Assembly: GCF_029227855.1 (NCBI RefSeq) | Contig: NZ_CP074356.1 | Origin: Escherichia coli | GTDB lineage: Bacteria > Pseudomonadota > Gammaproteobacteria > Enterobacterales > Enterobacteriaceae | Length of the DNA: 64,000 nucleotides | Strand: one strand, 5' to 3' | Shown here: positions 103 through 12,699 of the stretch, in pieces | Layout of the letters: each line of letters begins with the position of its first letter | How positions within the stretch are numbered: the stretch's first letter is position 1 | Position numbers and translations under genes: made by a program | Notes under the pieces: model-generated | Database searches by the model: none | Told to the model about the DNA's origin: nothing | What the model saw: the letters and a program-made list of their open reading frames with translations, nothing else

Positions 103-111
103 GGGATGTTT

Positions 112-444
112 ATGACGAGCAAAGAAACCTTTACCCATTACCAGCCGCTGGGCAACAGTGACCCGGCTCATACCGCAACCGCGCCAGGCGGATTGAGTGC
201 GAAAGCGCCTGCAATGACCCCGCTGATGCTGGACACCTCCACCCGTAAGCTGGTTGCGTGGGATGGCACCACCGACGGTGCTGCTGTCGGCATTCTTGCT
301 GTTGCTGCTGACCAGACCAGCACCACGCTGACGTTCTACAAGTCCGGCACGTTCCGTTATGAGGATGTGCTCTGGCCGGAGGCTGCCAGCGACGAGACGA
401 AAAAACGGACCGCGTTTGCCGGAACGGCAATCAGCATCGTTTAA
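112..444 (+). CDS. D: head decoration protein D (lambda gpD)
   Basis: ORF 106-444; product from ATG 112 begins [11 protein letters not shown] and matches lambda gpD over its length (110 aa). Confidence 0.93.
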
Positions 445-499
445 CCTTACCCTTCATCACTAAAGGCCGCCTGTGCGGCTTTTTTTACGGGATTTTTTT

Positions 500-775
500 A
501 TGTCGATGTACACAACCGCCCAGCTGCTGGCGGCAAATGAGCAGAAATTTAAGTTTGATCCGCTGTTTCTGCGTCTCTTTTTCCGTGAGAGCTATCCCTT
601 CACCACGGAGAAAGTCTATCTCTCACAAATTCCGGGGCTGGTAAACATGGCGCTGTACGTTTCGCCGATTGTTTCCGGTGAGGTTATCCGCTCCCGTGGC
701 GGCTCCACCTCTGAATTTACGCCGGGATATGTCAAGCCGAAGCACTTAGCATGGCTTTCTGAGGCTTTCGTGTAG
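500..775 (+). pseudogene. E: major capsid protein E, 5' fragment (first ~82 codons), interrupted at 735-744 by an inserted element
   Basis: From ATG 500 the product MSMYTTAQLLAANEQKF...GYVKPKH is lambda gpE N-terminus; after the core at 735-744 the frame continues into unrelated sequence and stops at 775. Confidence 0.92.
735..744. repeat. attL core / target-site direct repeat (AGCCGAAGCA)
   Basis: Identical 10-mer recurs at 11864-11873; prophage E sequence resumes exactly after the right copy. Confidence 0.85.
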
Positions 776-872
776 CTGCTGGTTTTTACACTTAATCTTT
801 TGATAATAAAGAATAAGTTTATCTGGCGCTTTCACTGAATTTTCCTCGTTATCTGTGTGTTGCAATCATCTC

Positions 873-892
873 TGTATTGCAGCTTGTATTGC
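873..892 (+). promoter_or_regulatory. tandem TGTATTGC motifs (TGTATTGCAGCTTGTATTGC), putative integrase arm-type binding sites overlapping the int 5' region
   Basis: Near-identical 20-mer (TGTATTGCAGCATGTATTGC) recurs at 11769-11788 just inside the other att core. Confidence 0.5.
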
Positions 893-907
893 TTTTTGGG
901 GCTAAAA

Positions 908-2143
908 ATGGCTGGCGAGAACAAACTGAGCGACAAAGCGCTTAAAGGATATCTGGGGAAACCCAGAGAAAAGCAGATCACCATTGCTGATGGAAAGGGG
1001 CTTTCTATTCGTGTGAGTACTAAAGGGGCTGTGAGCTTTGTTTTCTTCTACAGGTTAGCAGGTGGCCGGGCTGCTCCGGTCTGGCTAACGTTGGGTAAAT
1101 ATCCTGATATGTCACTCAAACAGGCAAGGGAAAAGCGCGACGAGTGCCGTGGTTGGTTGGCTGACAAACGTGATCCGCGTATCCAGATTAAGATTCAGGC
1201 TGAAGAACGCTTAAAGCCGGTCACAGTGGAGGATGCACTAAATTACTGGTATGAAAATTACTGTAAGGTGCGTCGTAAAACTCATGCTGTAACGCTTGGC
1301 AGATTTCGAAAGCATATCTTTCCCTATATCGGTCATTTGCCCGTAAATGACACTCACCTATATGAATAGCTGGACTGTTTTGACCGAATTAAACGTAATG
1401 CACCAGTTATGGCGGCGTATGTTTTTTCTGACACTAAATTAGCTCTTCGTTTTTGTCGGGTACGCCAGTACGCGACGTGTGATGCTTTAAAGGATTTGCG
1501 CATGAGTGATGTGGGGCAGATTGCAGGTAAGCGGGATCGGGTTCTGGATGAGGTCGAACTCGGCCAGCTCTGGAAGGCAATTTTTGTCGAGCCTGATTTA
1601 AAACTAATGTCTGAATACACGCGAAAAATGTTTGTGCTTTGTACAGTATTTGGATGTCGAATGAGTGAAGCCCGATTATCAGAATGGAGCGAATGGGATC
1701 TCGAAAGTTGGGTTTGGACTGTGCCAAAAGATCACTCAAAAACTGGTGTTGAAATCGTCAGACCAGTACCTGAAATTCTACGACAGTGGGTAACGGATGT
1801 TCACGAAGAGACAAAACATACTGGTTATGTGCTGGGAAGTCTGCGAATTAGAGAAAGCGTAAGCAAGATTGGGGGGAAAATCGGTAAACGTTTGGGCCAT
1901 GAAAAACAATGGTCACTACACGACCTTAGAAGAACGCTATCTACTCATCTAAGTGATCTCGGTGTTGAATTTTATGTAGTAGAACAACTGTTAGGCCATG
2001 CGCTACCTGGCGTGGCAGGTGTTTACAACCGGAGTAAGTTTATGGCTAAAAAACTGGATGCTCTGGAACTCTGGACTACATATCTCAATAGCATCGCAGC
2101 TGCTGATTCAAAAGTGACAATCCTCAAACAAAAGGCTGGTTAG
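908..2143 (+). pseudogene. int: P4-type tyrosine integrase interrupted by an in-frame amber codon (TAG at 1367-1369)
   Basis: ORFs 857-1369 and 1409-2143 are in the same frame, separated by one TAG; N-terminal arm-binding region (MAGENKLSDKALKGYLGK...) and C-terminal catalytic region with HDLRRT, LLGHA and VYNRS (Tyr) motifs. Confidence 0.85.
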
Positions 2144-2144
2144 C

Positions 2145-2375
2145 ATGAAAAAAATGGCAATTGTTGATAAAAAGGGTCTGGAGTACATTCCTAACATTGA
2201 CCGAATGATCCGTGAGAAAGAATGTCGGGAGCTAACTACTCTTGCGAACAGCACACGCTGGAAGCTGGAGAAGGAAGGAAAATTTCCTAAGCGGATCAAG
2301 ATTGGTTCCACTGCTGTTGCATATCGTCTTTCAGAAGTGCAGGCATGGATTCGAGGTGAGTGGGAAACAACTTAA
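2145..2375 (+). CDS. alpA: AlpA-family HTH transcriptional regulator / excisionase-like protein
   Basis: 76-aa product with AlpA-type HTH (RIKIGSTAVAYRLSEVQAWI); immediately downstream of int as in P4-like and PICI elements. Confidence 0.8.
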   Translation: MKKMAIVDKKGLEYIPNIDRMIREKECRELTTLANSTRWKLEKEGKFPKRIKIGSTAVAYRLSEVQAWIRGEWETT

Positions 2376-2382
2376 CTATTAG

Positions 2383-3213
2383 GTGGGCATTGTGGCTATA
2401 TTTCATTATACAGATCTTTTTGGTTTGAAAGGTATATTAGACTCTAATTCTTTATGGGCTACAAACATATATTTCTTAAATGATAAAGAGGAGTCTAACC
2501 ATGGATGTGAATGCTTTCGAAATACAATTAAAATAGTTGATGACAATATCATTCCAAAAGATAAGAAAACTATTTTGCTCAAGTCTCTTGACATGTATGA
2601 GAAAGGGAGGTTACAAAAAGAAAAAGGGATTGATAAACATGTTTATAGCATCTCTTTTTGTAAGGAAAACGATAAGTTAAGTCAGTGGAGAGGTTACGGA
2701 AATAAACAGGGTGTTTGCATTGAGTTTGATGCGGATGAACTTGTGAGCTTTTCTCAAAATATTTATTTAAATTGTGTTGCACATGATGTTATATATTCAA
2801 ATAATAACGATATTACTAAGATGAGTAAGGAGTTGGGAGAGTTTTTTTCTTGTAATGGTATTAATATTAAAGAAATGAATGATCATTTTGTAACAATGGT
2901 CTCTACGTATCAATTTATATCTAAATACATCCCATTTTTTAAACATCCTAGTTTTATCGAAGAGAATGAATTTAGATTGGTATTTACTCCGTGGATGCAA
3001 ATGCCAGATGTGCACTTCAGAATAAATAATAATGGGATCATCCCTTATATCATCATTGATAATAAAGATAATAGAAAGTTACCAATTAAAAGCATTACAA
3101 TTGGCCCGACAAACGATTATGATTTCATTGAGGCTGGTATAAAAATGTTCTTGGATTCAAGAGGATTTAGTTCTGTGGAAATTAAATCCTCATCAATTCC
3201 ATTCAGGGGGTAA
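2383..3213 (+). CDS. uncharacterised 276-aa protein, AT-rich accessory gene (candidate defence/abortive-infection cargo)
   Basis: Long ORF with GTG start at 2383 (alternative GTG at 2392 has AGGTGG 5 nt upstream); visibly AT-rich relative to int and primase; no confident family match by eye. Confidence 0.6.
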   Translation: MGIVAIFHYTDLFGLKGILDSNSLWATNIYFLNDKEESNHGCECFRNTIKIVDDNIIPKDKKTILLKSLDMYEKGRLQKEKGIDKHVYSISFCKENDKLSQWRGYGNKQGVCIEFDADELVSFSQNIYLNCVAHDVIYSNNNDITKMSKELGEFFSCNGINIKEMNDHFVTMVSTYQFISKYIPFFKHPSFIEENEFRLVFTPWMQMPDVHFRINNNGIIPYIIIDNKDNRKLPIKSITIGPTNDYDFIEAGIKMFLDSRGFSSVEIKSSSIPFRG

Positions 3214-3344
3214 GGATTAACACTTTTAATCTATGATATTATAAAAATGGTGGATAAAGGCGACCAGAATTGGTCGCCAATGTGAGTATATAGTTAGCCT
3301 TAATCAGAATACGAGGTTATCGCCTGATAGGCAATGTGAACAGT

Positions 3345-3701
3345 TCAATATTTAGGTGGTTCAACAAGAGCGTTTATCATTGCTCTCAAATTATCGCGAA
3401 CACTTATCCAAGTCTGTTCTGCTCGTTCTAACTCATCAGTGTACAACTTTAATGTTTTATCTATGCCATATGTGGCTATTAAATTTATAGCTTCTTGTAA
3501 TTTTTCAGGATTATTCCTTCTTGGGGGAGTGAATATACCACGGATTTTTCCGGTAATTAAAGCTTTACGGTGTCTACATAGAATACCTTTACTTCCTGCT
3601 GGACAATTACAAGTCATGATTAGCGAGCCAGAATCGTTTGATACAGTGACTATGTATACATCCAAACTACTGCTACTTGTTGCGAAGAATTCGTATTTCA
3701 T
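3345..3701 (-). CDS. SWIM-type zinc-finger protein (118 aa)
   Basis: CxC...CxH motif (CNCPAGSKGILCRH); AAGGAG Shine-Dalgarno about 8 nt upstream of the ATG; downstream of the Arc-like gene on the same strand. Confidence 0.6.
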   Translation of the reverse strand: MKYEFFATSSSSLDVYIVTVSNDSGSLIMTCNCPAGSKGILCRHRKALITGKIRGIFTPPRRNNPEKLQEAINLIATYGIDKTLKLYTDELERAEQTWISVRDNLRAMINALVEPPKY

Positions 3702-3728
3702 GTGTTAGCTCCTTGACTTCAATTATTC

Positions 3729-3920
3729 TTATCCTTTTGGTTCAATACCGCGCCGTAGCAGCTCTTTGCGCCCTAATTCTTTAAGCCAGTTGGCTAGGCT
3801 TATGCCGTCGCTCTGCGCTTCTTTGTCGAATTGCTCTTTTAGCTCTGGAGAAATTCGCATTCTGAATTGTGGAGATTGCCCATCACCCTTAGGACTTTTA
3901 TCGCGTTTGATCGTTGACAA
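3729..3920 (-). CDS. Arc/MetJ-type ribbon-helix-helix DNA-binding protein (candidate satellite repressor)
   Basis: C-terminal part ...PQFRMRISPELKEQFDKEAQSDGISLANWLKELGRKEL resembles Arc repressor; start uncertain (TTG at 3920 with AGGTGG upstream, or ATG further in; ORF track gives 3729-4043); divergent from the + strand operon that starts at 4060. Confidence 0.55.
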   Translation of the reverse strand: MSTIKRDKSPKGDGQSPQFRMRISPELKEQFDKEAQSDGISLANWLKELGRKELLRRGIEPKG

Positions 3921-4059
3921 GTGACCACCTATTGAATTAGCCTTTTCATTGTTAGGTGACCACCTTAACACGGGGGCACTTAAAAAAGCAAAGCCCGAAG
4001 GTGCTGGGAACACCAACGGGCTTCTAACCACCAACGATAGCAACAGTATCGAGGTAGCT

Positions 4060-4263
4060 ATGAGAAATCATACCACACACCCGCAAGGGCGGGACCCGCA
4101 CAACCTGAATAAATACATCTGGCGTTTTATCGCCTTGAGTACGGCACAACCGCGCATGATTACCATCGAGGCCATCAGCGAACAGGAAGCCCGCCAGCAA
4201 TCCCCAACTGGCTGCGTGATGGTATTCGCCGCCCGTATTCGTCAGGAGGTGTGCCGTGCTTAA
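4060..4263 (+). CDS. hypothetical small protein (first gene of operon leading to primase)
   Basis: ATG 4060 preceded by GAGG; in frame with ORF 3949-4263. Confidence 0.45.
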   Translation: MRNHTTHPQGRDPHNLNKYIWRFIALSTAQPRMITIEAISEQEARQQSPTGCVMVFAARIRQEVCRA

Positions 4264-4441
4264 AACCTTCCGTGTATTTGCCCGAGCTGTTAACCCACTG
4301 GGCCACACAATTGGTATCACTCAGAACGTGAAGGCTGTTAATGTTCAGACGGCTATTGCTGCGGTGAGAAGCGAATCATCAGAATATGGCTTATCACAAG
4401 TCATTATTTCAGCAGTGTATGAATTAAAAGAGGTGCATTAA
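4256..4441 (+). CDS. hypothetical small protein (61 aa)
   Basis: ORF whose start overlaps the upstream stop (translational coupling). Confidence 0.4.
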   Translation: MLKTFRVFARAVNPLGHTIGITQNVKAVNVQTAIAAVRSESSEYGLSQVIISAVYELKEVH

Positions 4442-4632
4442 TGCAGGAAATCACATTACACGAAGCCGCTGAACGTGCGCACCAGACAGAAATTATTTGC
4501 CGCCTTCTTGAGGTATACCCGAACAAAATTACAGATGCTGATATATCCGCGCTGGCGAGCCTACTGGCGCGCCTTTCGGGAAGTGTCGCTAGTTTCCTGA
4601 TTGAGGAAGAAAGTAAGCTGGTGGGGGATTAA
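4441..4632 (+). CDS. hypothetical small protein (63 aa)
   Basis: ATG overlaps upstream stop (TAATG); co-directional operon. Confidence 0.45.
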   Translation: MQEITLHEAAERAHQTEIICRLLEVYPNKITDADISALASLLARLSGSVASFLIEEESKLVGD

Positions 4633-4854
4633 ATGAATACAGAACGGGAAGTCTTTTTTAAATTGTTAGCATGTGCAGAAAGTTCATTAACTTTAAATAA
4701 TTCAGCAAAAGCAATATTAAATATGTGGCTTGATTGCATAAATGACAATGAAGATGCAAATATTGCTTATGGCCTGTTGTCACTTATTGATGAATCAGCA
4801 GAAAAACTCAATGACGCAATAAATAGTGCCCTGCTATCAAATAAGTCGAGTTAA
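4633..4854 (+). CDS. hypothetical small protein (73 aa), AT-rich
   Basis: ORF directly abutting the upstream stop. Confidence 0.4.
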   Translation: MNTEREVFFKLLACAESSLTLNNSAKAILNMWLDCINDNEDANIAYGLLSLIDESAEKLNDAINSALLSNKSS

Positions 4855-4871
4855 GTCGAGGAATAAATAAT

Positions 4872-5171
4872 ATGGAAATGAAAAATTCTGGCTTTATTGC
4901 CAGCGGCCCCGCTCGGCCTGAATTTATGAACGGCGATATTTACCGCGATAAATACGGCGGCACGGTAACGATTAAAGGCGTGGCAGAACGGCGCATCACT
5001 TACCGCCGTGAGGGGTATAGCTATGACTGCGTGATGCCTGTTTATCAGTTCCGGCGTGATTTTTCCCTGGTATATGCCGCACCCCGCAGTAAGCCCATCA
5101 GCAGGGAAAAAGCGCGGGGAAACATCCAGAAAATGAAAAGCATGATTAACGCATTCAGGGGCAAAAAATGA
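4872..5171 (+). CDS. hypothetical protein (99 aa)
   Basis: ORF whose stop overlaps the primase start. Confidence 0.45.
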   Translation: MEMKNSGFIASGPARPEFMNGDIYRDKYGGTVTIKGVAERRITYRREGYSYDCVMPVYQFRRDFSLVYAAPRSKPISREKARGNIQKMKSMINAFRGKK

Positions 5172-6919
5172 AACTGGCACCGAACTTAAAAAAACAGCCA
5201 CGCGACAGACTGACAGAGGTAATCATCTTTGCAGGTAGTGATGCGTGGAGCCATGCGAAAGAGTGGCGGGAATGGGCGGGTAAACATATTGCCGCCGACG
5301 ATGTGCCGCCTGTCGTGCTGGCTGATGAGCAACTGAAAAATATCACCGATTACCGGATCATTGATGAAGATCGTCAGTGTGTGCGTGTTTACCGCGCAGG
5401 ACATATCACAGAGCACAGCATGACGCAGATTGTTACGTTACTGGCTGTGGCTGGAGTGAAGACCGTACACGAATACGCGGGGATTACTGACACCAGCCCA
5501 GTGGATTTATCCGAGCAGTTGCCGCGACTCAAAGAGGAATGCGAGCGTGGGGAAAGTCTGGTGCTTAATCTTCCGACGAAGCAAAAGGCGCAACTTTCAC
5601 AGATGGCAGACAGTGAACGTGCACAACTACTTGCCGATCGCTTTGATGGTGTGTGTGTTCATGCAGAAAGTGAAATCGTCCACGTATGGCGCGGCGGGGT
5701 ATGGTGTCCGGTCAGCACAATGGAGCTGAGCCGCGAAATGGTGGCGATCTATTCAGAGCACAGGGCCACGTTCAGCAAACGTGTAATCAATAACGCCGTG
5801 GAAGCGTTAAAAGTTATTGCCGACCCCATGGGGGAGCCGTCCGGTGATTTGCTACCGTTCACTAATGGTGTGCTTAACCTGAAAACGGGGGAATTTTCTC
5901 CGCACTCGCCGGAGCACTGGAGCACCACGCACAATGGCATTGAGTACACGCCACCAGTAGCAGGGGAAAACATCCGCGATAATGCGCCAAATTTCCATAA
6001 ATGGCTTGAACATGCTGCAAGAAAAGACCCGCGCAAGATGATGCGTATATGTGCCGCGTTATACATGATTATGGCGAACCGCTACGACTGGCAGATGTTC
6101 ATTGAGGCCACCGGAGACGGGGGAAGCGGTAAGAGTACATTTACCCATATTGCCACCCTGCTTGCTGGCAAACAGAACACCGTAAGCGCGGAGATGACAT
6201 CACTCGATGATGCAGGAGGGCGCGCGCAGGTTGTCGGGAGTCGTCTTATCGTCCTTGCCGATCAGCCGAAATATACGGGGGAAGGCACGGGCATCAAGAA
6301 AATCACGGGAGGCGATCCCGTTGAAATTAACCCGAAATATGAGAAGCGATTCACGACGATAATAAGGGCGGTGGTACTGGCAACCAATAACGACCCGATG
6401 ATCTTTACCGAACGGGCCGGAGGTGTGTCACGCCGTCGGGTGATTTTCCGGTTCGACAACATTGTAAGGGAGGACGAAAAAGACAAGGAATTACCGGAAA
6501 AGATAGCGGCAGAAATCCCCGTAATTATCCGCCGCTTGCTGGCTAATTTTGCTGACCCTGAAAAGGCACGGGCTTTATTACTGGAACAGCGTGACGGTGA
6601 TGAAGCTCTGGCAATAAAGCAGCAAACGGATCCGGTTGTTGAGCTTTGCGCGGCGCTGGAGTTTCTGGAGGAAGCTCGTGGGCTAATGATGGGCGGTGGT
6701 GGTGACACCGTGAAGTACACGACCAGAAACAGCCTTTACCGTGTCTATATGGCCTTCATGGCATACACAGGAAAGGGGAAATGTTTGAGCGTGAATGAGT
6801 TCGGAAAGGCTATGAGGTCAGCGGCGAAAGTTTACGGATATGAATATATTACGCGAAAAGTTAAGGGAGTCACGCAGACCAACGCAACGACTACTGATGA
6901 TTGCGATGCGTTTTTATAA
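5168..6919 (+). CDS. P4-alpha-type replication primase/helicase (phage/plasmid primase, P4 family C-terminal domain)
   Basis: 583-aa product with Walker A GDGGSGKST and surrounding blocks typical of P4-family primase C-terminal domains; followed by iterons. Confidence 0.85.
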   Translation: MKLAPNLKKQPRDRLTEVIIFAGSDAWSHAKEWREWAGKHIAADDVPPVVLADEQLKNITDYRIIDEDRQCVRVYRAGHITEHSMTQIVTLLAVAGVKTVHEYAGITDTSPVDLSEQLPRLKEECERGESLVLNLPTKQKAQLSQMADSERAQLLADRFDGVCVHAESEIVHVWRGGVWCPVSTMELSREMVAIYSEHRATFSKRVINNAVEALKVIADPMGEPSGDLLPFTNGVLNLKTGEFSPHSPEHWSTTHNGIEYTPPVAGENIRDNAPNFHKWLEHAARKDPRKMMRICAALYMIMANRYDWQMFIEATGDGGSGKSTFTHIATLLAGKQNTVSAEMTSLDDAGGRAQVVGSRLIVLADQPKYTGEGTGIKKITGGDPVEINPKYEKRFTTIIRAVVLATNNDPMIFTERAGGVSRRRVIFRFDNIVREDEKDKELPEKIAAEIPVIIRRLLANFADPEKARALLLEQRDGDEALAIKQQTDPVVELCAALEFLEEARGLMMGGGGDTVKYTTRNSLYRVYMAFMAYTGKGKCLSVNEFGKAMRSAAKVYGYEYITRKVKGVTQTNATTTDDCDAFL

Positions 6920-6933
6920 AAAATGGCAATGGT

Positions 6934-7161
6934 TATCTACCTTGTCTACCTGACTGAAAGAAAATACTTTTATTTCAATGTATTAATGCAGGTAGATAAC
7001 TATTTTTCACTGTCTACCTGTTATCTACCTTATCTACCCATTTTTGTAGACAGGTAAGGAGACGGGTAGAGATGAGGTAGACAGCTATTTGGGGCTGTCT
7101 ACCTCCCTGAAACCCGCGCCATTACTGGCCTGATAACTAATCAGGTAGACAAGGTAGACAA
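6934..7161. repeat. replication-origin iterons (about 12 copies of T[GT]TCTACC / GGTAGA[CT]A in both orientations)
   Basis: Dense cluster of the 8-9-bp motif in the non-coding stretch immediately downstream of the primase gene. Confidence 0.75.
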
Positions 7162-7208
7162 GGTGGTGGTGCACAAAAAACTTTTTAAACGAGGGGGTAA
7201 AAATAAAA

Positions 7209-7466
7209 ATGCACACTTCAGGAAAACTGAACAAACATATAAAGCCACATTACCGCGCCCTTGATATGGCTGAACACTGGCTAAGGGTGGCGATTAAGGC
7301 AATAGACCGCAACGCCGGGGAAGGATACGCGAAAGCACATCCCGAACTGATAAGCGCATTCATGACAACGGCGGCTGCAAACTTTGCCACGCTGACCGAA
7401 CGGGAGATTGCTGAAGCGGAGGAAGTGACAACAATCAATATTAAGTCCGGAGAGCAGGCAGCATGA
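7209..7466 (+). CDS. hypothetical protein (85 aa)
   Basis: ORF whose stop overlaps the ssb start (ATGA). Confidence 0.45.
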   Translation: MHTSGKLNKHIKPHYRALDMAEHWLRVAIKAIDRNAGEGYAKAHPELISAFMTTAAANFATLTEREIAEAEEVTTINIKSGEQAA

Positions 7467-7912
7467 CGGCGCAAATATCAGTTTACGGGCGGTTGGTGGA
7501 CGACCCGCAGACAAAACAGACCAGCAAGGGCACCCCCATGACGCTGGCGCGTATGGCGGTATCACTGCCCTGCAGTCAGTCGGATGACGGTCTGGCGACG
7601 TTGTGGTTATCTGTCCTGGCGTTTGGCAGACAAGCCGACGCGCTGGCAAAGCATCACAAAGGCGAACTCCTGAGCGTGGCGGGTAACATGCAGATGAGCC
7701 AGTGGACTGGACAGAACGGCGAAACGCGGCAGGGCTGGCAGGTTATCGCAGACAGCGTAATCAGTGCGCGATCGGTGCGACCGGGCGGCAAAAAAGGCCA
7801 ACAGGGGCAGGCTACTGACGCACTGAACAGAGCAAAACAACAGGCAGATCAGCAAGGAAGCCAGCCACCAGAGGGAGATAATGAGCAATGGGGAGATGAT
7901 ATCCCGTTTTAA
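7463..7912 (+). CDS. ssb: single-stranded DNA-binding protein (SSB)
   Basis: 149-aa product with OB-fold-like N-terminal region and acidic C-terminal tail ending DDIPF. Confidence 0.75.
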   Translation: MTAQISVYGRLVDDPQTKQTSKGTPMTLARMAVSLPCSQSDDGLATLWLSVLAFGRQADALAKHHKGELLSVAGNMQMSQWTGQNGETRQGWQVIADSVISARSVRPGGKKGQQGQATDALNRAKQQADQQGSQPPEGDNEQWGDDIPF

Positions 7913-8128
7913 ATATTGCCAATAAAAAAAGCCGGAAAAAATAAATTTTCCGGCATGCTACATAAATCCCGACCAAAGGGAGTGAAGATATTAACACTAA
8001 TTGTCCGCACTGAAGTTGTCACACCAAAACTTTATACAACATTGCACTCGGTTGCATGTGTTCGCATGACAAATATCGGTGATAGCATATATCCACAATT
8101 ATTTTTAATGAATGCAAAGAGGATGCGT

Positions 8129-9169
8129 ATGGTTGATTTATATTCGCCTACTCAGCTTGTACAGGTAGTTAATGCTGTAGATGTACAAAAACAACTAAAT
8201 GCGTTGTTTACCAGTTTGTTTTTTACTCGCTCGGTAATGTTTGAATCGCGCGATATTATTCTTGATACAATCGACGATCCAAATATCCCAATTGCAGCGT
8301 TTTGTTCTCCTATGGTGGGTAGTAAAGTTTCACGTGACGAAGGGTACGAATCAAAAACAATTCGTCCAGGCTATATGAAGCCGAAAAGCAGCATTGATCC
8401 AAATAAGTTAGCTGTGCGCCCTGCTGGTGTGTCACCTGAGCAATACAATGCTTTTGGGGCGCGTAATATTAAAGTTAAACAGGCGATTGTAAATCAGGCT
8501 AAAGCTATTCGTGCACGTATTGAATGGCTTGCTGTTCAGGCAATCACAACGGGGAAAAATATCATTGAGGGCGATGGTATTGAACGTTATGAGCTGGACT
8601 GGAATATAAAACCACAAAATATCATCACTCAGTCTGGCGGTACTGAGTGGTCAGGTAAGGATAAAGAAACTTTTGATCCAAATGATGATATTGAGAGCTA
8701 CGCAGAATTTAGTGAGGGCGTCACTAATATCATCATTATGGGTGGTAATGTATGGAAGAAATACCGTTCATTCAGAGCGATAAAAGAGGCTTTGGATACC
8801 CGTCGTGGTTCTAATTCCGAACTGGAAACGGCCCTTAAAGACCTTGGTGATTCGGTGAGTTTTAAAGGGTATATGGGCGATGTTGCGATTGTTGTTTACA
8901 GCGGGCGTTATACCGACGAGGACGGAACAGAAAAACATTTCCTTGATCCTGATTTGATGGTGCTTGGCAATACGGCTCTTCAGGGGATTGTCGCCTATGG
9001 CGGTATTCAGGATCCGGAGCTAATCCGAATGGGGCTGACTAAAGCCGAACTTGCACCGAAAAACTATATTGTGCCTGGTGATCCGGCTATTGAATATGTG
9101 CAGACACATTCAGCACCACAGCCAATACCGGCCCGCATCAATCGTTTTGTTACCGTTCGCATTGGCTAA
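8129..9169 (+). CDS. major capsid protein paralogue (lambda gpE-like) encoded by the satellite
   Basis: ORF 7916-9169; from ATG 8129 (GAGG upstream) the product aligns collinearly with the prophage's own E, sharing blocks ITQSGGTEWS, DTRRGS.SELETA.KDLG and GDVAIVVYSG. Confidence 0.85.
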   Translation: MVDLYSPTQLVQVVNAVDVQKQLNALFTSLFFTRSVMFESRDIILDTIDDPNIPIAAFCSPMVGSKVSRDEGYESKTIRPGYMKPKSSIDPNKLAVRPAGVSPEQYNAFGARNIKVKQAIVNQAKAIRARIEWLAVQAITTGKNIIEGDGIERYELDWNIKPQNIITQSGGTEWSGKDKETFDPNDDIESYAEFSEGVTNIIIMGGNVWKKYRSFRAIKEALDTRRGSNSELETALKDLGDSVSFKGYMGDVAIVVYSGRYTDEDGTEKHFLDPDLMVLGNTALQGIVAYGGIQDPELIRMGLTKAELAPKNYIVPGDPAIEYVQTHSAPQPIPARINRFVTVRIG

Positions 9170-9178
9170 GGGGGAGCA

Positions 9179-9520
9179 ATGGCTACTCATTACACTGAAC
9201 TCATGGCTGGCACTGAAGCACTGGTGACTACGCTGGGGATATTTTCAGCTAATAAAGGGGTAATTCCTGCATTTACGCCACTGATGCAGGAAGATGCAAC
9301 AGGTGCACTGGTGGTATGGGATGGTTCGAGCGTAGGTAAAGCGGTTTATGTTTCCGCTGTACAAATCGACACCGCGAAAAAAACACAGGCTCAGGTCTAT
9401 AAGACAGGTGTCTTAAATGTTGATGCTCTGAACTGGCCTGAGTCTGTTAAAGAACTGTCAGTAAAGGTTGCAGCGTTTGTTGGCTCAGGTATTTCTGTTC
9501 AGCCGCTGGCTCGTGTGTAA
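9179..9520 (+). CDS. head decoration protein paralogue (lambda gpD-like) encoded by the satellite
   Basis: 113-aa product alignable with prophage D at 112-444 (LVVWDGSSVGKAV versus [13 protein letters not shown]; shared C-terminal G.AISV region). Confidence 0.75.
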   Translation: MATHYTELMAGTEALVTTLGIFSANKGVIPAFTPLMQEDATGALVVWDGSSVGKAVYVSAVQIDTAKKTQAQVYKTGVLNVDALNWPESVKELSVKVAAFVGSGISVQPLARV

Positions 9521-9531
9521 AGGGGGATACA

Positions 9532-9915
9532 ATGCAGAATGATTACAATGACCTTAAGCCAATTGCCGAAATGATGTACCCGAATCAAGCTGTAGAGGAA
9601 TTAAAAGCTATCGCTGACAAAATGTGTTTAAGCGAGCGCCTTGTTGATATGAATCAGGTGATGGAAATTACAACCCTGAGTCGTCGTACACTGCTAAACC
9701 TTGAGGCTAGTGGAGAGTTCCCGGAGCGTGTGCAGGTTACGGAAGGGCGTAAGGCCTGGTATTTAAGTGAAGTGATCGACTGGATAAATAATATTCCTCG
9801 CGCTTCTGAATATTGCCGCGTACCTGTCCCAAAAAAGCCAGATGCGGCGCTATGCCTCAAGATTGAGCGTGTACGCCGCAATGCACGGGATGGTCGCTAT
9901 AAGCTGATTGGTTGA
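9532..9915 (+). CDS. AlpA-family HTH protein adjacent to cos (candidate packaging-redirection or regulatory protein)
   Basis: 127-aa product with AlpA-type HTH (ITTLSRRTLLNLEASGEFPERVQV) and a basic C-terminal extension; immediately upstream of the cos site. Confidence 0.55.
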   Translation: MQNDYNDLKPIAEMMYPNQAVEELKAIADKMCLSERLVDMNQVMEITTLSRRTLLNLEASGEFPERVQVTEGRKAWYLSEVIDWINNIPRASEYCRVPVPKKPDAALCLKIERVRRNARDGRYKLIG

Positions 9916-9923
9916 TGAAATTA

Positions 9924-9950
9924 GGACCCGCTCTGGCTGGCGGGTCCTTT
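9924..9950 (+). terminator. hairpin terminator-like element after gene 9532-9915
   Basis: GGACCCG...CGGGTCC stem followed by TTT. Confidence 0.4.
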
Positions 9951-10145
9951 CCGGCGATCCAGAACGTTACGGGGCGTCAGGCGCGCAGTTTTTCGCTATT
10001 TGTGAAAATTTTCCTGTTTAAGGCGTTTCCGTTCTTCTTCGCCGTAACTTAATGTTTTTATTAAAAACACCCCCTAAAAAGAAAGGAAACGACAGGTGCT
10101 AAAAACAGGCTTTTTGGCCTCTGTCGTTTCCTTTCTCTGGTTTTG
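9940..10145. other. lambda-type cos site (cosN-equivalent at about 9972-9983; cosB R3-I1-R2-R1 to about 10140)
   Basis: Stretch TTTTCGCTATTTGTGAAAATTTTCCTGTTTAAGGCGTTTCCGTTCTTCTTCG...AAAGAAAGGAAACGACAGGTGCT...GGCTTTTTGGCCTCTGTCGTTTCCTTTCTCTG closely matches the left end of phage lambda (cosB) from memory; cosN 12-mer reads GGGCGTCAGGCG instead of GGGCGGCGACCT; no Nu1 gene follows. Confidence 0.8.
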
Positions 10146-10513
10146 TTGCCATCCGTCGCGGTCTATCACCAGAAAAAATCTTATCCCTGAGTTGAATCAG
10201 GCCCTATTCAGAAGCGGCCAATAACGCGCCGCTAGCTTCACTTCATAGTTATGGCCTACTTCTGCGCCATTGCAATTGCTTTATGCGCCTTGATGGTGGA
10301 ATATAGAGCAAGCAGTTTGCGAATAACAAAGTTTCATATGTTTTTTGCTGTGTGGCTAGACAACTTTACAGCAGAGTTTTGTGTCAGTTCTTTATGTGTG
10401 CAAGCAAGCTTGAGGGGGAATTACTTCTGGCTGTATCTTTGCTTAAGAACAGCAATAATTTAATCATAAGGAAATGTATATAAGCCTGATTAAATTTCAG
10501 GCTTATTGAAATG

Positions 10514-11656
10514 TTAACTCCTTATTAGAGAGTAAATTCCATCCTCTTTAAGGAAGTCTATTACTTCAAAGAATGAGATAAAGAATTCCCAAGAACCAAA
10601 AGCATATGCATGAATTTCGTAAGGTGCAAAATGGAATCTAAATCCATCACTATTTATTGTGAACGAGTCTAAGTTACTATCCATGATACCCGTTGCAAAC
10701 GTACTAATGTCGTCCTCACTTGGTTTTTCACCAGTTTTCTCCCAAAATTCACGAGCTGATTCAGAGATTATTTTTTGTTTTATCTTATTAATCGCTTCTT
10801 GCTCTTTCCCTTCGGTAAATACATCCCATAAACTAAATTTGTATGCGTAGTCATCCTTGGTTATTACGAAATTACTAGTTTCAAAATGACTGTTAGGGTG
10901 TGCTGCTCCCGCACCATACCAATGTACGGAATGAAGGATGCTCATGACATTTTCGTTACAGTATGAGATGTTATAACTTTCATTATAGGAACTAGTGTAA
11001 GTGTGTTTATATTCTTCATCCCAATATGGTGTTCCTGGCCATAGTGATGTGCGTTCAGAAAAAATATGTAAAGCCGCTTTTCCTGAAAAGTAATCACTAA
11101 TGAGTTTTGCTGATTTCGGTAATGTATGGCTTTCAATTCTTGGATATGCTATTTCAATTTCATGCCCTGGGATCTTGTTATATTCTTCCTTGAAAACCTC
11201 GCTGCTAAAGTTAAATGGCCCATAAGTGATACCTTGAGATATTTCAAGTTTTTGTTGCGATGCTGCTAATCTTAAAGATCTAGATAAAATGTCCCAACCA
11301 TCATTTCTCTTAAAATCAATGAATTGGAGCTTGCTTGATATGTAGGCGGGTACTTCGCAATCATCAATAAGTAATGGTATCACGAACACATCATCTGGTT
11401 TGTAATACTTTAGTTTATCAATGGCGTCATTTATTTCGCGGCGAATATAACCATTTTTCTGAGTGCTCACTTTGCTAAGGATAAGGATTATCAAGTTTGA
11501 ATTAGCGAAGTTTTTTTGGATTTCATAATCCCAGTTTACGCCAGCGGGTATATCTTTTACATCCATCCAAGGGGAATATCCTCCACTTTTTAGCCTTTCA
11601 TAGATTTCTTCAGTTATCGTTTCATCTTCTTTTGCATGAGCAAGAAAAATTTTCAT
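10514..11656 (-). CDS. TIR-domain protein with C-terminal domain of unknown function (candidate anti-phage defence gene)
   Basis: 380-aa product; N-terminal about 135 aa looks like a TIR domain (MKIFLAHAKEDE...ILILSKVS...REINDAIDKL); C-terminal about 240 aa unassigned (contains HWYGAGAAHP motif); AT-rich; last gene before attR. Confidence 0.7.
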   Translation of the reverse strand: MKIFLAHAKEDETITEEIYERLKSGGYSPWMDVKDIPAGVNWDYEIQKNFANSNLIILILSKVSTQKNGYIRREINDAIDKLKYYKPDDVFVIPLLIDDCEVPAYISSKLQFIDFKRNDGWDILSRSLRLAASQQKLEISQGITYGPFNFSSEVFKEEYNKIPGHEIEIAYPRIESHTLPKSAKLISDYFSGKAALHIFSERTSLWPGTPYWDEEYKHTYTSSYNESYNISYCNENVMSILHSVHWYGAGAAHPNSHFETSNFVITKDDYAYKFSLWDVFTEGKEQEAINKIKQKIISESAREFWEKTGEKPSEDDISTFATGIMDSNLDSFTINSDGFRFHFAPYEIHAYAFGSWEFFISFFEVIDFLKEDGIYSLIRS

Positions 11657-11768
11657 TGAATATTCCTTTATAATTTAACTAATTAAGTGAAGGAGGCTTT
11701 ACTTGGCTGTGTTAGAAAAAATTCGGTTTGTTTTTTGTACGATGCCAAGAAGGCTTTTCCCTAACCAT

Positions 11769-11788
11769 GTATTGCAGCATGTATTGCT
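11769..11788 (+). promoter_or_regulatory. tandem TGTATTGC motifs (putative integrase arm-type sites, right arm)
   Basis: TGTATTGCAGCATGTATTGC, 19/20 identical to 873-892. Confidence 0.5.
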
Positions 11789-11863
11789 ACGTAATTCTGC
11801 ACCCTCTCATTTATAAAATAAATCTCTGTTAAATCAAGTATCTTTTTTCTATTTGACTCATGT

Positions 11864-11873
11864 AGCCGAAGCA
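11864..11873. repeat. attR core / target-site direct repeat (AGCCGAAGCA)
   Basis: Identical to 735-744; E sequence (HEVNPQMTL...) resumes from this point. Confidence 0.85.
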
Positions 11874-12699
11874 TGAGGTGAATCCGCAGATGACCCTGCG
11901 TCGCCTGCCGGATGAAGATCCGCAGAATCTGGCGGACCCGGCTTACCGCCGCCGTCGCATCATTATGCAGAACATGCGTGACGAAGAGCTGGCCATTGCC
12001 CAGGTCGAAGAGATGCAGGCAGTTTCTGCCGTGCTTAAGGGCAAATACACCATGACCGGTGAAGCCTTCGATCCGGTTGAGGTGGATATGGGCCGCAGTG
12101 AGGCGAATAACATCACGCAGTCCGGCGGCACGGAGTGGAGCAAGCGTGACAAGTCCACGTATGACCCGACCGACGATATCGAAGCCTACGCGCTGAACGC
12201 CAGCGGAGTGGTGAATATCATCGTGTTTGATCCGAAAGGCTGGGCGCTGTTCCGTTCCTTCAAAGCCGTCAAGGAGAAGCTGGATACTCGTCGCGGCTCT
12301 CATTCCGAGCTGGAGACAGCGGTGAAAGACCTGGGCAAAGCGGTGTCCTACAAGGGGATGTATGGCGATGTGGCCATCGTCGTGTATTCCGGACAGTACG
12401 TGGAAAACGGCGTCAAAAAGAACTTCCTGCCGGACAACACGATGGTGCTGGGGAACACTCAGGCACGCGGTCTGCGCACCTATGGCTGCATTCAGGATGC
12501 GGACGCACAGCGCGAAGGCATTAACTCCTCTGCCCGTTACCCGAAAAACTGGGTGACCACCGGCGATCCGGCGCGTGAGTTCACCATGATTCAGTCAGCA
12601 CCGCTGATGCTGCTGGCTGACCCTGATGAGTTCGTGTCCGTACAACTGGCGCAATCGTGGCCCTTCGGGGCCATTTTCTCTCTGTGGAGGAGTCCATGA
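11864..12699 (+). pseudogene. E: major capsid protein E, 3' fragment (about 260 codons), with the lambda stop position read as CAA
   Basis: Product ...EVNPQMTLRRLPDEDPQ...DEFVSVQLA is lambda gpE from about residue 83; 500-744 plus 11874-12654 equals 1026 nt, the lambda E length; frame runs on 15 codons to TGA at 12697-12699. Confidence 0.9.

Follow-up and report, generated by a model that had tools for sequence, protein, structure and literature searches.

Organisation of the locus

The window analysed here is a stretch of 64,000 nucleotides from Escherichia coli (contig NZ_CP074356.1, assembly GCF_029227855.1), in which the major capsid gene of a lambda-like prophage is interrupted by a phage satellite, a helper-embedded phage-inducible chromosomal island (PICI). 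At the right-hand end of this element lies a minus-strand open reading frame (ORF) that starts with ATG and, counting its stop codon, spans the coordinates given in Table 1; re-translation agreed with the predicted product of 380 residues, which is near-identical to the RefSeq protein WP_000688840.1, annotated as 'TIR domain-containing protein'. Because more than 110 full-length homologues (23–71% identity) have kept the same length and architecture, the ORF represents a real gene and not a chance reading frame. An earlier note on this DNA had described the gene as AT-rich, as convergent with the core genes of a satellite and as the last gene before the right attachment site (attR), and each of these points was borne out. 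The G+C content of the gene is 0.356, compared with 0.478 for the core of the element and 0.576 for the flanking prophage; the core genes int, pri, ssb, capsid, decoration and alpA are all on the plus strand; and the attR core begins 208 bp past the start codon, an interval in which no ORF of at least 40 residues was found, save one antisense ORF that spans the junction. In the RefSeq annotation of E. coli IAI39, nothing is annotated between alpA and the TIR gene. The hairpin that follows the stop codon (−13.5 kcal/mol, z −4.27, with none of 200 shuffled sequences equally stable) is likely to be a terminator, though its U tract is poor.

Table 1. Positions of the TIR gene, its domains and signals, the carrier satellite and the adjoining prophage genes in the window.
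Feature	Position	Strand	Basis
Lambda gpD-like gene, upstream of the element	106-444		
Lambda gpE-like major capsid gene, N-terminal fragment (first ~80 codons)	473-775		
attL core AGCCGAAGCA, end of the gene E N-terminal fragment	735-744	+	
Helper-embedded PICI, ~11.1 kb	745-11863	+	Gene order, att cores, sister-copy annotation, PMC10111431
int	857-2143	+	
Primase	5168-6919	+	
SSB	7463-7912	+	
Capsid homologue (satellite's own)	7916-9169	+	
Decoration homologue (satellite's own)	9179-9520	+	
alpA	9532-9915	+	
TIR cargo cassette, DNA restricted to TIR-bearing elements	10329-11845		Breakpoints against L013-L017
Hairpin, 10-bp stem, 8 nt past the stop codon	10480-10506	-	RNA fold
Coding sequence of the TIR-DUF4163/DUF3298 protein	10514-11656	-	ORF list, Pfam, re-translation
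DUF3298 half, residues 257-380	10517-10888	-	Pfam DUF3298, E 2.5e-10
Invariant loop P345-Y346-x4-Y351-x2-G354 in the DUF3298 half	10595-10624	-	
PdaC/DUF4163-like half, residues 143-256	10889-11230	-	Pfam, invariant columns, fold matches
Invariant motif W-Y-G-A-G-A-A-H-P-N, residues 246-255, end of the PdaC-like half	10892-10921	-	
TIR domain, residues 1-125, flavodoxin-like fold, beta-alpha repeats	11282-11656	-	
Putative catalytic glutamate E74, codon GAA	11435-11437	-	Alignment with SPARTA, codon checked
Shine-Dalgarno-like AAGGA, 7 nt 5' of the ATG	11664-11668	-	Read by eye, inference
Possible own promoter TTGATT-16 nt-TATAAA, weak	11808-11837	-	Candidate by eye only, inference
attR core AGCCGAAGCA, within lambda-like gene E	11864-11873	+	
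Lambda gpE-like major capsid gene, remaining C-terminal part	11878-12699		

The N-terminal domain is a TIR domain closest to that of SPARTA

The suggestion in the earlier note that the N-terminus is TIR-like held on profile, on sequence searching against the PDB and on fold, which is the flavodoxin-like fold of TIR domains. Pfam TIR_2 (PF13676) matched residues 3–122 with an E value of 5.3e-21, and TIR (PF01582) matched with 3e-4. The best PADLOC models were those for the TIR part of short-Argonaute TIR-APAZ proteins (Aga_TIR-PNTD, 1.6e-17), and the best matches in the PDB were the SPARTA TIR-APAZ chains 8z92, 8ifk and 8fex (4e-8 to 3e-6, residues 2–118); SAVED-TIR (9e-8) and ThsB (8.5e-5 to 6e-3) gave weaker PADLOC matches, and every match ended near residue 120.

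In the PDB-search alignment, E74, which lies in the string R-R-E-I-N, paired with E77, the catalytic glutamate of SPARTA TIR-APAZ. Conservation of this residue had been proposed as a check, and in an alignment of 113 full-length homologues E74 was indeed invariant, as were F4, W30, D32, G39, W42 and S61. Judged from these alignments, the domain is a probable NAD-destroying enzyme, where NAD stands for nicotinamide adenine dinucleotide.

The C-terminal half is an RsiV-like DUF4163–DUF3298 module

The remaining residues, about 240 in number, had been regarded in the earlier note as unassignable. The fusion to a TIR domain was correctly seen, but the C-terminal part can be assigned: Pfam DUF3298 (PF11738) matched residues 278–362 with an E value of 2.5e-10, and PdaC/DUF4163 (PF13739) matched residues 166–256 weakly (E 0.024). 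PF11738 is precomputed on nearly all of the homologues, and PF13739 is recorded for some of them (P0013, P0019) and reached E ≤ 0.001 in 11 of 33 relatives. The module matched the structures 3cyg, 5jen, 3s5t and 4e72 and has the two-lobed fold of 3CYG and 5JEN, so the profile and structure searches that had been called for led to an RsiV-like DUF4163–DUF3298 receptor fold. Identity between the module and its fold matches (RsiV, the N-terminal domain of PdaC, 3CYG, BF2082, PA4972 and MPT64) is 12–19%.

Two strongly conserved stretches stand out in the module (Table 1). In the loop of the DUF3298 half, Y346 and Y351 were invariant and P345 and G354 nearly so in the 113 homologues. RsiV, an anti-sigma factor that consists of DUF4163 and DUF3298 and is the lysozyme receptor of Bacillus, binds lysozyme through Y255 and Y261, which contact the catalytic E35, and through S169, which contacts D52; the loop that carries Y255 and Y261 touches the active site of lysozyme (PMC5014341). 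By profile alignment, the RsiV loop F-D-E-Y255-E-V-A-P259-G260-Y261-M-G263 corresponds to F-A-P-Y346-E-I-H-A-Y351-A-F-G354 in the present protein (the numbering of the RsiV chain was checked against the residue numbers of PMC5014341, the offset being 14). MPT64 has an RsiV-type fold and yet does not bind lysozyme, and in the profile alignment it lacks tyrosines at the positions equivalent to Y346 and Y351. The second stretch, the motif at residues 246–255, is a family-wide feature, as a related block is present in 3CYG and 3S5T (G-G-A-H-G) and in secreted relatives.

No signal peptide, hydrophobic leader or membrane segment was detected in the 380-residue protein, and its N-terminus is the TIR domain itself; the C-terminal module is therefore cytoplasmic. 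Secreted DUF3298 relatives, by contrast, do have leaders, and RsiV (in its extracellular part), the PdaC N-terminal domain, 3CYG, BF2082, PA4972 and MPT64 are all extracytoplasmic. The protein described here thus departs from the usual location of the DUF4163–DUF3298 module, being both cytoplasmic and fused to an enzyme.

The same module carries different effector domains

A word-indexed search returned 131 clusters (90% identity), almost all of about 380 residues and with the TIR_2 plus DUF3298 architecture, from named sources that include E. coli, Cedecea, Enterobacter, Pantoea, Yersinia, Cronobacter, Salmonella, Azonexus, Burkholderia, Collimonas, Pseudomonas, Xanthomonas, Delftia and Sphingomonas. 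At 50% identity the architecture forms at least 89 clusters across the Proteobacteria. One widespread Salmonella allele (P0019, Salmonella enterica, 307 residues, 379 member sequences) is missing about its first 70 residues, or about half of the TIR domain, and has a complete DUF4163–DUF3298 module; it could be a degenerate copy that became fixed in a clone, or else a variant that has only the sensor.

When the C-terminal half was used as a profile in an exhaustive search of 1.84 billion representatives, 171 matches were obtained at E ≤ 1e-30 and 12,175 at E ≤ 1e-3. The best 150 of these comprised 89 full-length TIR fusions, 8 partial TIR fusions, 36 short fragments, 4 HNH fusions and 13 other proteins, among them one DUF4062 fusion (P0170) and several secreted proteins. 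Starting from one HNH member, 456 clusters of HNH-PdaC-DUF3298 proteins were found in lineages as diverse as Binatia, cyanobacteria, Chlorobi and Pseudomonas, nearly all of about 320–335 residues and with the HNH domain at the N-terminus. A word-indexed search with the C-terminal half alone gave TIR fusions only, and the exhaustive profile search was needed to reach the HNH and DUF4062 fusions. The earlier note had also suggested that the protein may contain a built-in sensor domain. A C-terminal module that is joined to TIR, HNH or DUF4062 in different proteins is consistent with that idea. The HNH-PdaC-DUF3298 proteins are a large uncharacterised family whose gene neighbourhoods resemble defence islands, and together with the DUF4062 fusion they look like sister single-gene defence candidates; examples of the HNH type are L018 8001–9005, L019 8001–8999, P0235, P0256, P0257, P0269 and P0272–P0389.

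The TIR gene fills a variable cargo slot of a helper-embedded PICI

The gene order of the carrier element is that of a PICI: int (interrupted by a nonsense codon), a helix-turn-helix gene, DUF2971 cargo, a regulatory zone, primase, SSB, capsid, decoration, alpA and the TIR cargo. The element is inserted in gene E of the prophage in the same orientation, the 10-bp core AGCCGAAGCA is present at both of its ends, and the C-terminal capsid fragment is followed by lambda-type head-tail and tail genes (an identical region is annotated in E. coli IAI39). These properties are those of the capsid-E type of helper-embedded PICI, an island of about 11 kb that is co-oriented within gene E of a lambdoid helper and flanked by a 10-bp identity block (Tommasini, Mageeney and Williams 2023, PMC10111431), so that the term satellite used previously can be refined accordingly. 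That paper mentions no TIR gene or defence cargo and interprets the downstream zone of these elements as late genes that were captured, not as genes for defence. Late transcription of the helper reportedly runs into helper-embedded PICIs (PMC10111431), and the TIR gene is antisense to such read-through.

The distribution of the element was surveyed in 5426 complete E. coli genomes. The satellite core from capsid through decoration to alpA (8300–9915) was present in 364 of them at a coverage of at least 80%, and the TIR region (query 10300–11900) in 15, at 99.8–99.9% identity. All 15 copies adjoined a truncated capsid gene, and their strains came from chicken, dog, human, river, soil and waste water. 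Compared with five sister elements (L013–L017), homology was lost on the left at 10005–10328 and regained on the right at 11846, 18 bp short of the attR core, which delimits a TIR cassette of about 10329–11845. In the sister elements the same slot is filled by a 311-residue protein with no significant Pfam match (L013), by IS66 together with a small terminase and a DUF2971 protein (L014; PADLOC candidate PDC-S31, 7.6e-26), by several hypothetical proteins and a DUF3892 protein (L015), or by a small terminase and a hypothetical protein (L016 and L017). The view that the gene occupies a typical position for cargo was therefore well founded, since this is a truly variable slot.

PICIs have been reported to carry immune systems at both their 5' and their 3' ends (PMC11364771). 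Another cargo gene of the present element lies at its 5' end and encodes a DUF2971 protein (2383–3213, plus strand; Pfam 3.2e-11; G+C content 0.31; weak match to PADLOC PDC-S31). It was found in 35 of the E. coli genomes, only 3 of which were among the 15 with the TIR gene, and the 5' and 3' slots therefore assort independently. Helper-embedded PICIs thus resemble other PICIs in having cargo at either end that assorts independently. Beside the DUF2971 gene lies an ORF (3345–3701, minus strand) that is annotated as a SWIM zinc-finger protein in CP048330 and gave a weak match to PDC-S62. DUF2971 genes also occur near TIR- or HNH-DUF3298 genes in two other loci (L009 and L018).

Relatives lie on diverse mobile elements without a conserved partner

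Outside E. coli, the TIR-DUF3298 gene was encountered in mobile elements of several kinds. In Burkholderia (L002 and L003) it is an opposite-strand prophage moron between the small terminase and upstream phage genes, and in Xanthomonas (L008) it lies within a prophage. It adjoins an AbiTii gene and an integrase in Cronobacter (L004–L007) and is found on three different integrative elements in Yersinia (L010–L012), with two RVT_1 reverse-transcriptase genes (L011), an AAA_23/SMC-like ATPase (L010) or a YobI-type ATPase (L012) as neighbours. In Sphingomonas (L009) it is part of an island, probably conjugative, that has a MobA/MobL relaxase gene and a DUF2971 gene, and a further 16 viral loci with relatives came from IMG/VR (L021–L036). 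As for the HNH sister family, one gene (L019) lies among methyltransferases, a DpnII-MboI enzyme, GmrSD, NERD, SIR2+DUF87 and ThiF, and another (L018) adjoins NYN, DUF2971 and another TIR gene.

All ORFs within 3 kb of the gene were compared with one another in 19 diverse loci, and no neighbour family was common to more than 3 of them. The earlier note had seen no adjacent partner gene, and this can now be extended from the present locus, where there is none, to the 19 loci, in which none is conserved. PADLOC scans of nine other ORFs of the satellite gave weak matches only. The DUF2971 gene was considered as a partner and rejected: it is 7 kb distant here, is absent in IAI39 and was present in no more than 3 of the 15 genomes that have the TIR gene. 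The sole neighbour that recurred is confined to a divergent TIR-DUF3298 clade (about 25% identity), in which a homologous ORF of 177–260 residues adjoins the gene in three otherwise unrelated loci (L009 7099–7632, L032 7230–7943 and L033 5243–6025). This ORF had no PADLOC match; within that clade alone, its product could be a partner of the TIR protein or act against it.

A one-protein abortive-infection system is the favoured reading

We favour, as rather probable on the sequence evidence, the reading that the TIR-DUF3298 protein is by itself an abortive-infection defence against phage, in which binding of a ligand by the sensor activates a TIR NADase. In its favour are the TIR matches with the invariant glutamate, the swapping of effectors on one type of sensor, the mobile-element and defence-island settings, the lack of a conserved partner, the cargo nature of the cassette and the precedent of SpbK. 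The gene is carried as an exchangeable cassette in the 3' accessory hotspot of its helper-embedded PICI. The cytoplasmic DUF4163–DUF3298 'saddle' would sense some ligand, most likely a protein of the phage, that arises in the course of infection; binding would draw the TIR domains together (induced proximity), the activated TIR domain would hydrolyse NAD+ via E74, and the infected cell would be halted before the phage cycle is completed, giving resistance to the phage. Known TIR NADases become active when their TIR domains are brought together. Depletion of NAD+ is preferred over signalling because the TIR domain is closest to the SPARTA type, no effector gene is present and TIR is interchangeable with the direct-acting HNH. 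The trigger is probably a phage-derived ligand, and probably a protein.

A phage muramidase is a concrete candidate for that ligand, because the tyrosine loop aligns with the loop by which RsiV plugs lysozyme and its tyrosines are absent from the non-binding MPT64. The sensor would then be a receptor for an endolysin or other enzyme of the lysozyme fold, with the P-Y346...Y351...G loop entering the active-site cleft and thereby firing the TIR NADase, and the HNH and DUF4062 domains of the sister families would be fired likewise. Endolysins build up in the cytoplasm before holin action. We nevertheless consider this version unlikely, as the comparison rests on one binder (RsiV) and one non-binder (MPT64), and it is weakened by the fact that the ligand of RsiV is a C-type lysozyme, not a phage-type enzyme, and that the loop is also conserved in members of unknown ligand.

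Several observations weigh against a role in phage defence as set out above. Literature searches found no paper on TIR-DUF3298 proteins, none linking DUF3298 with phage defence and none naming WP_000688840, and no mention was found in the text and supplements of DefensePredictor; a domain-centric screen (Nucleic Acids Research, 2026) left out single-gene systems. There was no full-length model in PADLOC, NCBIfam or PHROG, where matches were confined to the TIR part, so that the assignment to defence is based on where the genes lie and on the logic of their domains. No one ligand goes with the DUF3298 fold, given that RsiV binds lysozyme and MPT64 does not, and MPT64 is reportedly a membrane-binding protein. 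Identity to the C-terminal domain is 22–28% for the cytoplasmic, effector-fused forms and 23–36% for secreted DUF3298 proteins; with all relatives at roughly 22–36% pairwise identity, the cytoplasmic fusions cannot be demonstrated to be a separate clade. The structure model leaves the mutual orientation of the two domains uncertain (predicted template modelling score, pTM, 0.66), and a consensus promoter scan, under a stricter rule than the reading by eye, gave no strong site upstream of the TIR gene. Finally, a common late phage protein as trigger should cause the element's own helper to fire the system. A satellite in the late operon of its helper would have to avoid turning an abortive-infection gene on that helper; the antisense position could silence the TIR gene during helper induction, or the helper may simply lack the trigger.

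Other explanations

One alternative is a Thoeris-like mechanism, in which the TIR domain would make a nucleotide signal (a cyclic ADP-ribose isomer or similar) for an effector encoded elsewhere and DUF3298 would still be the sensor. ThsB proteins are TIR sensors whose part outside the TIR domain varies, and weak matches to them were seen not only in PADLOC but also in NCBIfam (ThcB4, 16 bits) and Pfam (ThsB_TIR, E 0.27). SPARTA-type, NAD-depleting TIR domains score far above ThsB, however, and no ThsA, caspase-like or other effector is encoded adjacent to the gene here or conserved in the 19 loci. The cassette moves as a single gene among unrelated mobile elements, under which a split two-part system would not survive, and its TIR domain is interchangeable with HNH, a direct-acting effector; we therefore find the Thoeris-like scheme quite improbable. 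The position of the gene suggests a different possibility, namely that it serves the dealings of the satellite with its helper, for example by binding helper endolysin to time lysis, by killing cells in which the composite has failed, or as an addiction or exclusion module. It does lie in a satellite within the helper late operon, antisense to late read-through, RsiV-type domains can bind and inhibit muramidase, and some PICI-borne systems act on helper-type structural steps (PMC11364771). Yet only 15 of the 364 genomes with the satellite core have the gene, which places it outside satellite biology proper; homologues are found in ordinary prophages, conjugative and integrative elements and islands without a satellite; and a simple lysozyme inhibitor would need no invariant catalytic-type glutamate in a TIR domain. 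A helper-directed role is accordingly improbable in our view.

We see a similarly small chance that the protein is a ligand-controlled stress or toxin module unconnected with immunity, that is, an NADase answering a signal from the cell itself, for example cell-wall precursors or products of turnover. PdaC and RsiV, the characterised carriers of the module, both deal with peptidoglycan or its hydrolase, and the invariant His, Asn and Tyr residues also occur in secreted members, hinting at a common class of ligand. A housekeeping stress sensor would nonetheless be expected in core genomes, whereas this gene is AT-rich, horizontally acquired and patchily distributed on mobile elements, in known immune hotspots and in defence islands. 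A virulence factor of the TcpC and BtpA kind, a bacterial TIR protein acting on animal Toll-like receptor signalling or on host NAD+, was also weighed, but it is barely plausible: the structural likeness among TIR domains is generic, neither a signal peptide nor a secretion motif precedes the TIR domain at the N-terminus, homologues are frequent in Burkholderia, Xanthomonas, Sphingomonas and Collimonas from soil, water and plants as well as in metagenomes and viral contigs, and the replacement of TIR by HNH in a large sister family would be senseless for mimicry of Toll-like receptors.

Relation to known systems

The nearest described counterpart of a one-protein TIR defence is SpbK of the Bacillus subtilis element ICEBs1, a single TIR NADase that is borne on a mobile element and switched on by binding the portal protein of SPbeta (PMC11984713). 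Both proteins combine a TIR domain with a non-TIR sensing domain, are carried by mobile elements and lack a partner; they differ in that TIR is C-terminal in SpbK and N-terminal here, and in that the sensor here is DUF4163–DUF3298. SpbK was not among the matches of the PDB sequence search at E ≤ 10, and no similarity beyond the generic TIR fold was found. By sequence and by profile the closest TIR domain is that of SPARTA TIR-APAZ, with which the catalytic glutamate is aligned; SPARTA depletes NAD(P)+ after oligomerisation. Membership of SPARTA itself was rejected, as the matches end at residue ~118, there is no APAZ domain and no Argonaute ORF lies nearby, so that sensing is not guided by nucleic acid in the manner of SPARTA. 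Thoeris was likewise rejected (best ThsB model E 8.5e-5 over 57 residues; NCBIfam Thoeris type III 16 bits against a cut-off of 220; no ThsA or equivalent in the cassette or the element, or conserved in the 19 loci), as were CBASS TIR-SAVED and retron-TIR, whose defining partner domains or genes are absent. Unlike Thoeris ThsB, TIR-SAVED, TIR-STING and Cat1, the protein lacks SAVED, STING and CARF domains, and its gene has no cyclase, ThsA or CRISPR genes in its vicinity. The carrier resembles the helper-embedded PICI 11capE (PMC10111431) in organisation, in its lambda-like gene E target and in its 10-bp core, and it resembles the PICI immune hotspots (PMC11364771) in having cargo at the 3' end and a second cargo, DUF2971, at the 5' end; neither paper mentions a TIR or DUF3298 gene.

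Defence by a single protein that joins a sensor to a TIR domain and travels as mobile cargo is thus already known, as are this type of satellite and immune cargo at PICI ends. In PADLOC 2.0, NCBIfam, PHROGs and the searchable literature, no description was found of the TIR-DUF3298 family, of the receptor fold in a cytoplasmic effector fusion or of the HNH sister family. Were the favoured reading correct, this would be a widespread and compact (1.1 kb) one-gene defence whose sensor fold is known only from extracytoplasmic proteins, including the lysozyme receptor RsiV, and the large DUF3298/DUF4163 family (12,175 representative clusters at E ≤ 0.001) would gain its first clue to a function. The occurrence of the sensor on at least three effector domains (TIR, HNH and DUF4062) is a natural experiment for finding what it detects. 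Should the ligand be a muramidase, lysozyme sensing, so far an envelope-stress signal of Firmicutes only, would be a widespread antiviral trigger and the protein a new class of immune sensor.

Further features of the satellite

The integrase gene of the satellite is split into two ORFs by a G-to-A change at 1368, which converts TGG to TAG (nonsense codon 1367–1369), as judged against the intact copy of 411 residues in the near-identical element of E. coli CP048330. The copy of the element in the window is therefore probably unable to excise and locked in place, and a locked satellite would leave the capsid gene E of the helper permanently interrupted.

A 21-bp direct repeat, TGTATTGCAGCNTGTATTGCT, for which no occurrence is expected by chance, was found once at each end of the element, at 873–893 and 11768–11788, about 130 bp inside attL (the left attachment site) and about 80 bp inside attR. 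The right-hand copy is within the TIR-specific cassette and outside the DNA common to the sister elements. These repeats are possibly arm-type binding sites of the integrase. Just 3' of alpA there is a near-perfect palindrome of 57 bp (AGAAAGGAAACGACAG ... CTGTCGTTTCCTTTCT, 10080–10136), which coincides with the end of homology to some of the sister elements (10089 and 10146) and may mark the edge of the cargo slot, as a bidirectional terminator or as a signal for recombination or packaging. In E. coli IAI39 (L001, 1673–4247), the satellite and TIR gene are flanked on the left by a tRNA-Arg gene, a partial integrase and an IS3 element, and not by the left half of the helper. The IAI39 helper evidently lost its early region and head genes by deletion, which left the satellite fused to a remnant of the tail genes.

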